This document shows positions 3,001 through 6,000 of a stretch of DNA of 8,544 nt, one piece after another (position 1 is the stretch's first letter; each line of letters starts with the position of its first letter). The stretch lies in the IMG/VR virus record IMGVR_UViG_2602041669_000023; one strand, given 5' to 3'. The DNA comes from a virus. Its lineage: Duplodnaviria > Heunggongvirae > Uroviricota > Caudoviricetes. A program made the position numbers.

Positions 3001-6000
3001 TGGAGAGTAAATATCTTGCGCAATATGGAGAGATAATTGGCTCGAGTCTGAGATATCGTGGCTATATCCCAGAAATAAGCCTTGTGAGTAATCATCTCTG
3101 TTTTCATGTTTATTGCCATAAATATCATTAAGTATTGGTTGAAACTTCCCTGCATCATCATTTGCTAATGATAATGCAAGGCTGTTCGCGATAGCTGAAC
3201 ACGTGGTAAATGACAGAGCAATAAAGACGCCAGCGATGACACTTTTTTTCATATGTTATTGTCTTCCTTTTTTTTGAATGGTGCGCGTATTTTACATACA
3301 TGAGTTTGTAATACAAGGTGCGTAATCAATATGATGTTTTATAATTGCGTGAGACAATTGATTTATTCGTTTTTTATTGCGGTTTTTATTATCTTTTAAT
3401 GTAACGGTGTTTTTATTAAGTGTGTTTGCGTGGTGTTTTATGTTTTTTATAATTTTTATTTTATTAAATTTAAAAGCATTAGTAATGGCTATTCTATATA
3501 GCAATATAAGAACTGTTACAAAAAAAGGGGGGGGCAATTACAGGTAGTTATGGATGATGAGTGAAACAGATATTGGAGAACCGGGGAATGAATGATGTCT
3601 GAGTCTTATATATCAGAACTCCTTCGCTGTCGCTGGGGGCTCGTGTGCTTATGTCGTTTCCCCGATTCGGTTTTGAACGATTACCGAATGTTGAAGAATT
3701 ATGCCAAAATATAGAAAGGATTTACTGCATGAATACCCAATATTTACAGTATGTTCGTGAGCAACTTATGGCAGCTACTGCTGACTTGAACGGAGCAACG
3801 AAAGGCCAGCTCGAAGCCTGGCAGGAGCATGCACAATTTGATACTGGTACATACAAACGAAAGAAGCCGCGCATTCTGGATGTGGTAACTGGCAAGATGA
3901 TTACGCTGGATAATACGCCGACTTCCGGTAAGCAGTCGTACGCAAAAGGTTCATCCATTGCTTTGGTCAGCCCGGTTGAATTCTCAACCTCTTCATGGCG
4001 CCGCGCGGTTTTGTCTCTCGATGAACATCAGAAAGCATGGTTGCTTTGGTGTTACAGCGAAAGCGTTCGATGGGGGCATCAGGTCACCATAACGCAATGG
4101 GCATGGAGCGAGTTTAAAGATTTGTTAAGTAACAGAAAAATTGCAGGTAAGACACTGGATCGCCTGAAGACGTTAATCTGGCTGGCTGCACAGGATGTGA
4201 AGAGCGAACTTGCAGGGCGTGAGGCCTATGAATACCAGACACTGGCATCATTGGTGGGAGTGACAACAAAAAACTGGTCCGAGACATTTACTGAACGCTG
4301 GGTTGCAATGAAGCACATTTTTCTACAGCTTGATAGTGATGCTTTATTGCTTGTGACGAGAACACGTTCAAAACAAAAGGCAGCATTTTTACAGCAAAAT
4401 ATTGCAAAACTGGATTAAAAGCCATATACTTCATGCAAATTTGGTATGTTGTAAAAAATGTATAAACCCGCTGCCGAGTGGGTTTTTTTTATGCCCTGAG
4501 TTGTACTTGTACGGTAAACATGCTGGCTGCTATGTAATAGAGTTTTTTTAGCCTGTAACCTCTTGACGGCATTGAATTGCTTTTGTTATGAGTTGTAAGC
4601 CAATGTTATCATCTTGTATTGGGGTGGTTATGAAGGATGGTGCGCTGCTCAGGAGTTCTTCACTTTTTATTGCCTACATGGGATGCCTTGGATGGGGGAG
4701 TGCTTATTTCTATGGATGGGGTACTTCTTTTTACTACGGCTTCCCATGGTGGATTGTAGGTGCAGGTGTTGATGATGTTGCCAGAAGTTTATTTTTTGCA
4801 GTTATCGTCATTGCTATATTTCTTATCGGTTGGGGTATTGGTGTTGTATTCTTTTTCGCAGTGAAAAGAAAACATTCTATGCAAGAGCTAAATGTATTTC
4901 GCCTTTATTTTGCTGTGGAATTATTGTTTGTGCCGGCAATTATTGAGTTTTCTATATTGAGACAGAAGATTCAGGTACCTCTTTTGCTACTGTCAGCAGC
5001 GATTGCGCTGGCGGTTACAATTTCGATAAGATCTTATGGGCGATTTTTATCGGTATCATGCTTCTATGATAAGCCATTTATAAAAAAACATTTTTTTGAG
5101 ATTGTGATGATTGCTTTTGTGGCATATTTCTGGCTTTTTTCATTTCTGACAGGATATTACAAACCACAGTTTAAGAAAGAATATGAAATGATTAATTATA
5201 ATGATGGTTGGTATTATGTTCTTGCTCGTTATGATAATTGTCTGGTTTTGTCTACTTCTTTCAATGCAGGTAGTAAAAGGTTTGTCATTTATCAATCAGC
5301 ACAAGATAAGAATCTTCAGGTTGATATTGTAAGGACCAGAATTTAATTGGCTGCATAAATAATATTTTAAGTTGCAAGTTGGCTATTCGTAGGAATAGAA
5401 CCTTAGGCATGCTGAATGCGTTTTCTGAACATTGTTTTATAAACTGTGTCTGCTTGCTGTTGTGATCCTGCTTTTAGTGATGGTGATGATGGATTTCACC
5501 AGCAGGATAATGTTGGTACTGACTGATGGCGCTCTGGTCTGCGGCATTGTGGTATTGCTGTGGCCGATGATGAAAGAACAGAATGAATAATTCTTGACTT
5601 TTTTGTTTACTGTTTATTAAAAAATCAACCGCATGGTGAATCCTCCTTGGAGGGGCTAAATGATCGAGTTTTAAGGGCACGTAGCGAGTTCTGTTTGATC
5701 ATTGCAGAACTTAGCGGGAGGCGCCATGCGTACATCACTAATGTTATTTCCTTCTATCATTTTCCTTGTGAGTTCTGGCTGCGCATGGCGCGGCCTTTTT
5801 TTTATGACCTGCCACTGGCAGATGGTCATCCTGTGATTTGATTCCGGTTCCGGCTTTTTAACTCTGTTCCTGTACACGGGAGAAATTCTATGTCGATTAA
5901 TCGTTATGATATTGGTTACAAGAAGTACCACGTATTGTGTTGAGATAGAAAGCATGGTGCCAGAGGTAAATGCAGCAGCATAATAAAAAAGAGCCAGCGC

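Follow-up and report, generated by a model that had tools for sequence, protein, structure and literature searches.

A promoter-to-terminator module in the late region of a lambdoid prophage is very probably the gene of the Hfq-binding small RNA PasD1 (EcOnc13) and lies downstream of a phage-82-type late promoter

The DNA analysed here is an 8,544-nucleotide (nt) stretch of a Caudoviricetes virus (IMG/VR record IMGVR_UViG_2602041669_000023), referred to below as the window, and the element in question is a short promoter-to-terminator module at positions 5594-5803. This module is very probably the gene of an already described Hfq-binding prophage small RNA (sRNA), PasD1, known as EcOnc13 in Escherichia coli O157, and it is with the same high confidence that we regard PasD1 as an Hfq-associated, trans-acting sRNA occupying the "moron" site of lambdoid prophages. 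A preliminary description, made from the sequence alone, had read the module as a PR'/6S-like unit that could be the Q-utilisation (qut) and late promoter region or a regulated leader. The late promoter of the window is a phage-82-type PR' at 4402-4462, located 1.2 kb upstream of PasD1 and directly after the intact Q gene, and PasD1 lies inside the late operon, not in its control region. The sequence identity, the family membership, the promoter geometry, the covariation of the RNA structure and the location of PR' were established in the present study. The module is composed of the following elements:

5594-5599, + strand: -35 hexamer TTGACT of the PasD1 promoter, read directly
5618-5623, + strand: -10 hexamer TAAAAA, 18-nt spacer from the -35 hexamer, 7 nt before the start G5631; assigned by family conservation
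5631-5803, + strand: PasD1 sRNA (EcOnc13), 173 nt, 100% identical to PasD1 and to the Sakai Sp3 locus, with a match to STnc100 (Rfam RF02076)
5631-5729, + strand: structured 5' domain of ~100 nt, with a closing helix (5631-5638/5722-5729), hairpin 1 and a hairpin at 5686-5712
5642-5653, + strand: hairpin 1, CCUC-CUUG-GAGG, a homologue of the first hairpin conserved in STnc100 (CCCCC...GGNGGGG)
5660-5674, + strand: mini-open reading frame (mini-ORF) ATG-ATC-GAG-TTT-TAA (MIEF*), 6 nt after GGAGG, in PasD copies only
5767-5772, + strand: seed UGUGAG, complementary to the CUCACA motif of the targets found by ligation and sequencing of interacting RNAs (RIL-seq; PMC8550237 Fig. S5, Table S7)
5777-5803, + strand: intrinsic terminator of PasD1, stem 5777-5795 with 8 pairs (7 G-C), then T8 to 5803
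5804-5829, no strand assigned: imperfect palindrome ATGACCTGCCACTGGCAGATGGTCAT, directly 3' of the terminator

All 173 nt of window positions 5631-5803 matched PasD1 of E2348/69, an enteropathogenic E. coli (EPEC) strain (NC_011601, 1060260-1060432, + strand), the locus of which was fetched and aligned, and the same 173 nt were identical in prophage Sp3 of E. coli O157:H7 Sakai (901226-901398). PasD1 was first described, with these coordinates and this length, by Pearl Mizrahi et al. (2021; PMC8550237, Table S6), and the transcript ends, size, Hfq association and RIL-seq partners have been shown by others on the identical sequence. The preliminary description had placed TTGACT, CCTCC-TT-GGAGG (5642-5653), the ATG ATC GAG TTT TAA frame, the terminator and the palindrome correctly, and its suggestion of a promoter-to-terminator unit making a short RNA was borne out, the unit being autonomous and matching a mapped sRNA; the 5' end that it predicted at 5628 lies 3 nt from the published start at 5631, and the 3' end is the U-tract ending at 5803.

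The published data can be transferred to the window position by position. The PasD northern probe CATGCGCAGCCAGAACTCACAAGG was reported together with the seed UGUGAG (PMC8550237), and its reverse complement, CCTTGTGAGTTCTGGCTGCGCATG, reads from window position 5764, the seed standing immediately 5' of the terminator. PasD1 fragments found in RIL-seq chimeras at 1060384-1060434 correspond to window ~5755-5805 (PMC8550237). The same study validated PasD1 by northern blotting, reported Hfq-dependent stability and expression under virulence-activating conditions, and listed RIL-seq partners that include aceE, uspA, tir, cesF and bfpB. Additionally, EcOnc13 was recovered as an Hfq-crosslinked RNA by Tree et al. 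(2014; PMC4104026, Table S2), with a peak of Hfq cross-linking and analysis of cDNA (CRAC) at Sakai 901332-901382, which is window 5737-5787 by coordinate mapping, and with a size of ~187 nt on northern blots (PMC4104026). So, Hfq binding and an RNA of ~173-187 nt have been reported for the identical sequence in both E2348/69 and Sakai (PMC8550237, PMC4104026).

The surroundings of the gene are also those described for pasD, which, according to a preprint (10.64898/2026.05.13.724894), has flanking lambda-type Q and LpxR genes and stands directly before sialate esterase or holin-lysozyme genes. Using the synteny criterion taken from that preprint, we found the lambda-type Q (PF03589) and LpxR within 10 kb of the module, the former as a remnant of 24 N-terminal codons at 2078-2149 and the latter at 2293-3252 (- strand), and the lysis genes downstream. 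The preprint names phage 2B8 (NC_049952) as a pasD carrier, with pasD directly upstream of the esterase, and describes PasD as structurally related to STnc100; phages 2B8 and 434 were also the best phage matches in our comparison, with 97.5-97.7% identity over 5400-5914 (97.5% for 2B8). Of 5426 complete E. coli genomes, 688 carried a 301-nt segment around the module, the median being three copies per genome, and 563 of the 690 matching records had it at 99% identity or more.

The known loci, PasD1 and PasD2 of E2348/69 and EcOnc13 of Sakai Sp3, share the promoter, seed and terminator with the window, and in the RNA itself no difference was seen between PasD1, EcOnc13 and the window copy; the gene order (membrane protein, DUF3927/TciB, PasD, convergent sRNA, holin) is also shared by the PasD1 and EcOnc13 loci. 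What distinguishes the window is its combination of a Q82-type left arm, as found with PasD2 in E2348/69 prophage PP2 and in phage 434, with an esterase-less right arm, as found with PasD1 in PP4; Sakai Sp3 has the same combination of arms.

Comparison with the wider family was possible through Rfam and a motif scan. With the threshold relaxed, the Rfam scan matched 5601-5806 to STnc100 over the full length of the model (37.7 bits, E 1.7e-5), short of the gathering score, which is 47 bits. A blastn search of the phage collection for distant relatives reached PasD copies only. STnc100 relatives were reached by an exact-motif scan of viral contigs with CATGGTGAATCCYCC; it yielded 120 loci, and representative relatives among them were bona fide STnc100 (101-148 bits). 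The shared STnc100 architecture, namely the 5' GCAUGGUG closing helix, the CCCCC/GGGG hairpin, the covarying GUUCAG/CUGAAC hairpin and the terminator, was found in PasD. STnc100, which includes EcOnc27/sRNA103 downstream of stx2B, agrees with PasD in the 5' end (GCAUGGUGAAUCC...), the closing helix, the first hairpin and the covarying hairpin, as well as in promoter geometry and in the moron-site position before the esterase. At the same time, PasD has a hairpin 1 loop that is 3 nt shorter, does not contain the CCGGG-AGGCA-CCCGG hairpin, and differs in the middle region, the seed and the type of terminator. PasD is thus a sister lineage of STnc100 and not a scored member of it. Eight of the scanned loci (L007, L010, L021, L022, L030, L044, L071 and L076) contained a tandem pair of STnc100-type 5' motifs on one strand, at a distance of 232-483 nt.

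The structure of the RNA showed covariation in the family. The minimum free energy (MFE) fold had -56.9 kcal/mol (z -2.07). In an alignment of 24 sequences, helix 4 (5686-5693 with 5705-5712) showed compensatory changes in six of its eight pairs, with GUUCUG/CAGAAC in PasD against the variants GUUCAG/CUGAAC and GUUCGG/CCGAAC elsewhere; the covariation exceeded all 500 shuffles (0/500 reached the observed value) and all slid controls. The pairs of hairpin 1 were invariant save for one C-to-U change in the window copy, which gives covariation neither for nor against it, and the absence of variation in this hairpin and in the closing helix is partly due to the search pattern, which fixed both. 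Downstream of the 5' domain, a U-rich single-stranded stretch ends in the seed UGUGAG, and the seed region and the terminator are swapped modularly between family members. Such a modular 3' end fits a base-pairing sRNA with a fast-evolving targeting end.

The promoter was likewise recognizable from family conservation. When 43 distinct family upstream regions were aligned on the shared 5' end, TTG was found near -37/-35, at the same distance from +1 as in the window, and in the -10 region the T at -13 and the A at -11, -9 and -8 were conserved in 91-95% of the sequences (86% for the A at -10). An extended -10 TG was present in about half of the family copies, and the copies devoid of it, that of the window included, have a -35 hexamer nearer to consensus (TTGACT or TTGATT). 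The 5777-5803 terminator ranked first among the terminator-like sites of the window, and the G-to-A change of PasD2 in its stem converts a U-G into a U-A pair, preserving the stem. The palindrome at 5804-5829 did not vary among the 15 PasD loci fetched, was seen only beside PasD and is a terminator on neither strand. Note that a simple consensus scan did not call the PasD1 promoter, and in the window promoter-like and terminator-like sites were no commoner than in shuffles; in spite of this lack of signal, the module is more than a chance arrangement because of its identity to a mapped sRNA, its spread over 688 genomes and its STnc100 match.

Several points weigh against the assignment and should be considered together with the Rfam score, which falls short of STnc100 membership. 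The abundance of pasD1 in RNA sequencing (RNA-seq) was not significantly changed in the delta-hfq strain (log2 fold change -0.18; PMC8550237), despite the claim of Hfq-dependent stability from northern blots. According to the preprint 10.64898/2026.05.13.724894, no regulatory target of PasD1 has been functionally validated so far. The use of sigma-70 and a primary (triphosphate) 5' end at 5631 are suggested by RNA-seq coverage and by promoter conservation. Moreover, the EcOnc13 northern probe as printed, TTTTCTAACACATCTATTATCAGACCGGCAACAAC (PMC4104026 supplement), was found in neither the window nor the Sp3 locus (L129 in our set), which could reflect a mistake in the table or a probe made for a paralogue. 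When reverse-complemented, the printed probe resembles the promoter region of another STnc100 copy.

The assignment to PasD1 had to be weighed against the late promoter interpretation, according to which 5594-5803 would be a PR'-qut-tR' region where Q engages an early-paused polymerase and read-through proceeds into the lysis genes. This interpretation could draw on the TTGACT -35 hexamer, which lambda-type PR' also has (that of E2348/69 PP4, too, begins TTGACTTTTT), on a short terminated transcript upstream of the holin and on one -10-like hexamer, AATGAT, at +29..+34 of PasD. The last of these, however, is not preceded by the TG of an extended -10, stands in a family-variable segment and is the only candidate for a pause element in +1..+40, where no extended -10-like element was found; by our own calculation, chance would give about 0.6 such hexamers in 35 positions. 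The position is also unsuitable, since 5594 lies 1176 bp past the Q stop codon with two genes between, and a complete late promoter of another type was found directly after the Q gene:

3729-4418, + strand: intact Q82-type antiterminator gene (PF06323, E 1.7e-91), matching the annotation of phage 434
4402-4462, + strand: PR' of the phage-82 type with its initial transcribed pause region, TTGCAA-17-TATACT (4402-4430), +1 at 4437
4464-4493, + strand: tR' terminator, annotated as a terminator in phage 434; RNA of ~57 nt from 4437

The preliminary description rightly distinguished two Q genes, a truncated lambda-type one and an intact one of another family, and it is the intact gene, PF06323/Q82-type and 94% identical at its 3' end to phage 82 Q (X92588), that is followed by this promoter. 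The phage 82 pR' starts at AAA, has a discriminator GCC at +15..+17, a pause at +25/+26 and a U at +25, and its pause element is -10-like, has an extended -10 and is bound by sigma-70 at a 21-nt transcript (Bird et al. 2016; PMC5001585). As the X92588 record ends at the Q stop codon, the comparison of pR' was made via these published features and 82-type relatives. In the window, the initial region has AAA at 4437, TGGTATGTT (TGnTATGTT) at +6..+14, an A-rich stretch and U at +25 (4461). A relative, L050, has all published 82 pR' features, GCC included, and the PR' of the window, which is identical to that of phage 434, has GTA in place of GCC at +15..+17 and keeps the remaining features. In the window copy, ~19 nt are also missing before the terminator in comparison with other Q82-type phages. 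The segment 4402-4493 also shows a weak resemblance to Rfam STnc240 (E 0.66).

Among Escherichia, Enterobacter and Klebsiella phages with a Q82-type Q, the similarity runs from the 3' end of Q through the promoter and stops at window position 4451; a similarity ending just after the pause element is the pattern that would be expected of a co-inherited Q-qut unit. Location directly after the cognate Q, co-inheritance with it and a -10-like sigma-70 pause element in the initial transcribed region (4437-4462) are therefore properties of the 4402 promoter, and none of them was found for the promoter at 5594.

Further evidence comes from prophages in which the same cassette follows different Q genes. 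In E2348/69 PP4, the membrane-protein/DUF3927/PasD cassette lies behind a full-length lambda-type Q (PF03589), downstream of which the DNA is lambda PR'-like (TTGACT..., then AATAAT and GGG), and homology to the window resumes only around tR'. The same PasD cassette thus stands behind a Q82-type or a lambda-type Q, each with its own, different PR'. More widely, the upstream neighbours of family copies are stx2B, DNA methylase, AraC-like regulator, TerB-like or TciB genes, and in the ~10 copies with Q as the closest ORF upstream, a separate PR' and terminator always intervene, often with tRNA genes. PasD is abundant in uninduced cultures of EPEC and enterohaemorrhagic E. coli (EHEC; PMC8550237, PMC4104026), which does not discriminate between the two interpretations because lambdoid PR' is also active in lysogeny. 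Similarly, Q-dependent read-through at 5777-5803, proposed earlier as a check, cannot separate them because polymerase from 4437 must pass that terminator anyway. On the grounds of position, the absent pause element and independence from the type of Q, the late promoter at 5594 was rejected, and we consider it extremely improbable.

The resemblance to 6S stated in the preliminary description is real in form. The lambda PR'-qut-tR'/6S unit, phage 82 pR' and StxS (PMC7547250) have in common with PasD1 a short terminated late-region transcript made in lysogens, and StxS, the PR'-derived sRNA of Stx phages, is, like PasD1, an Hfq-binding regulatory RNA (PMC7547250). Lambda 6S, the 82 pR' RNA and StxS, however, start at a Q-controlled promoter directly after Q, with sigma-70 pause and Q-binding elements, whereas PasD1 has its own promoter 1.2 kb downstream, has none of those elements and is indifferent to the type of Q. 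The true 6S counterpart in the window is 4402-4493.

A second alternative to the PasD1 assignment is a cis-acting leader or attenuator, in which the 5' domain and the terminator would govern read-through from 5594 into the downstream esterase or holin. Such a function would be in keeping with the riboswitch-like layout (conserved structured domain, linker, terminator) and with the esterase of the SASA/NanS-p type being the next gene downstream in 66 of 104 family copies, but PasD1 is still perfectly conserved in the window, where the esterase is deleted. The perfect 10-nt complementarity of 5721-5730 with terminator bases 5782-5791 was considered as a possible antiterminator and was rejected, as the MFE is more stable than this conformer by 7.6 kcal/mol and PasD2 and phage 434 have an interrupted complementarity. 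Also against a leader, the linker and terminator are exchanged modularly across the family, a convergent sRNA (AgvB, AsxR, EcOnc32) abuts or follows the terminator in many relatives, and the terminated RNA is the abundant species, with trans interactions on Hfq. This leader is very unlikely in our judgement.

The third alternative is that the region encodes protein, either alone or as a dual-function RNA, with translation of a 64-aa ORF or of the MIEF mini-ORF being functionally relevant. In its favour, GGAGG stands 6 nt before the ATG at 5660, phage 434 has a coding sequence over the RNA on the same strand, and RefSeq has a "hypothetical protein" under the 301-nt segment; some STnc100 copies of EDL933, which may or may not include the counterpart of the window locus, also have a ratio of ribosome footprints to RNA above 1 (PMC5331693). 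The classical Hfq sRNAs CyaR and MicA, however, show similar footprint ratios in the same data (PMC5331693). The 64-aa ORF (5647-5841, + strand), called a "putative membrane protein" in phage 434, begins with TTG and includes the terminator. It gave no match in Pfam, and a frameshift separates PasD1 from PasD2/434 in its last third. On the opposite strand, a 132-aa ORF (5671-6069, - strand), listed in RefSeq as hypothetical (ECs_0817 / E2348C_RS28255), overlaps PasD1 and EcOnc32; Pfam gave nothing above the curated cut-off for it, and the call, which spans two sRNA genes, is probably spurious. Both ORFs were rejected as genes.

The mini-ORF reported in the preliminary description is present in the window, but the family does not preserve it: among 39 distinct variants, 23 lack a start codon at a spacing appropriate for a Shine-Dalgarno (SD) sequence, and the rest encode unrelated short peptides. 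The GGAGG in front of it is base-paired in the family consensus and in the MFE, being part of the conserved 3' arm of hairpin 1, which reads GGNGGGG in all relatives. The sequence of the hairpin that had been described as perfect and SD-occluding is likewise present, but a 2-nt loop cannot close, which leaves 4 bp and a tetraloop, weak when considered alone (-3.2 to -4.8 kcal/mol), and conservation does not support the SD-sequestration reading. Translation of functional importance is, accordingly, highly improbable. Somewhat broader is the proposal that the strongly conserved ~100-nt 5' domain of PasD/STnc100 does more than carry the seed, as a conditional leader in cis for the esterase or lysis genes downstream or through ribosome binding at the mini-ORF that tunes the fate of the RNA; we give this only a slight chance. 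If it were true, ribosome binding at the GGAGG-AUG mini-ORF would make PasD a dual-function element and not a plain Hfq sRNA.

The genes around PasD1 complete the picture of the late region. Between PR' and PasD1 lie two moron genes, for a membrane protein and for TciB (DUF3927). Downstream, a remnant of a SASA/NanS-p esterase gene occupies 5891-5943 (+ strand; 17 codons, then a stop), and the homology to phage 434 ends at 5914, which indicates that the esterase was deleted between PasD1 and the following convergent sRNA. The P21-type holin (6212-6427, dual start 6212/6221) begins ~409 bp past the PasD1 terminator and is followed by the endolysin (6427-6924). So, the distance of ~400 bp from terminator to holin given in the preliminary description was confirmed by measurement, but its lambda-like value is a result of the esterase deletion; phage 434 and E2348/69 PP2, which kept the esterase, have a gap of at least 2.3 kb between PasD and the holin. 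The convergent sRNA is the following element:

5983-6072, - strand: convergent sRNA, Esr41-like (EcOnc32 of Sakai Sp3); Rfam Esr41 32.3 bits, E 0.0044, far below the gathering score

EcOnc32 (901574-901662, - strand) corresponds to window 5979-6067, 26 nt of its northern probe match 6048-6073, and the RNA is ~112 nt on northern blots (PMC4104026). A promoter-like hexamer TTGACA was seen for it at 6111-6106 (- strand). According to Tree et al. (PMC4104026), moron genes downstream of PR' are followed by convergent sRNA genes, and the convergent pair of PasD1/EcOnc13 and EcOnc32 in the window fits this architecture. The anti-sRNAs AgvB/AsxR and Esr41 (PMC4104026) share the moron-site locus with PasD, the Esr41-like partner in the window lying on the opposite strand, but they are short (51-112 nt), oppositely oriented and unrelated to PasD in sequence. 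Additionally, a second terminator-like hairpin was noted at 6146-6174 (+ strand; 11 pairs and a T-rich tail), ~40 nt upstream of the holin start and inside the late operon. Past the lysis cassette, the window contains an ORF for a Rha-family regulator (7508-8152, + strand) and one, truncated, for an NleG-like type III effector (PF06416; 8113-8544, + strand).

Taken as a whole, the following mechanism is, in our opinion, highly likely for this region. In the lysogen, a sigma-70-type promoter (TTGACT, 18-nt spacer, TAAAAA) would start PasD1 at G5631; the RNA is predicted to fold into the ~100-nt 5' domain followed by the U-rich stretch leading to the seed, to end at the 5777-5803 terminator and to accumulate as a species of ~173-187 nt. 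On Hfq, the UGUGAG seed would pair in trans with mRNAs containing CUCACA. For lytic growth, we infer that the Q82-type protein loads at the promoter-proximal pause of 4437-4462 and that the Q-modified polymerase then would read through tR', the two moron genes (membrane protein and TciB) and the terminator of PasD1 as far as the holin, the PasD terminator being one more terminator that such a polymerase has to pass.

PasD1 is an already known element, and the significance of its recognition in the window is mainly one of annotation, with no new biology implied. The locus is mis-annotated at present, as a "hypothetical protein" in RefSeq and as a "putative membrane protein" in phage 434, and its sequence alone easily suggests a late promoter. 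PR'/qut at 4402-4493 and PasD1 at 5631-5803 together give the correct regulatory map of a late region that is widespread in the prophages of EHEC and EPEC.

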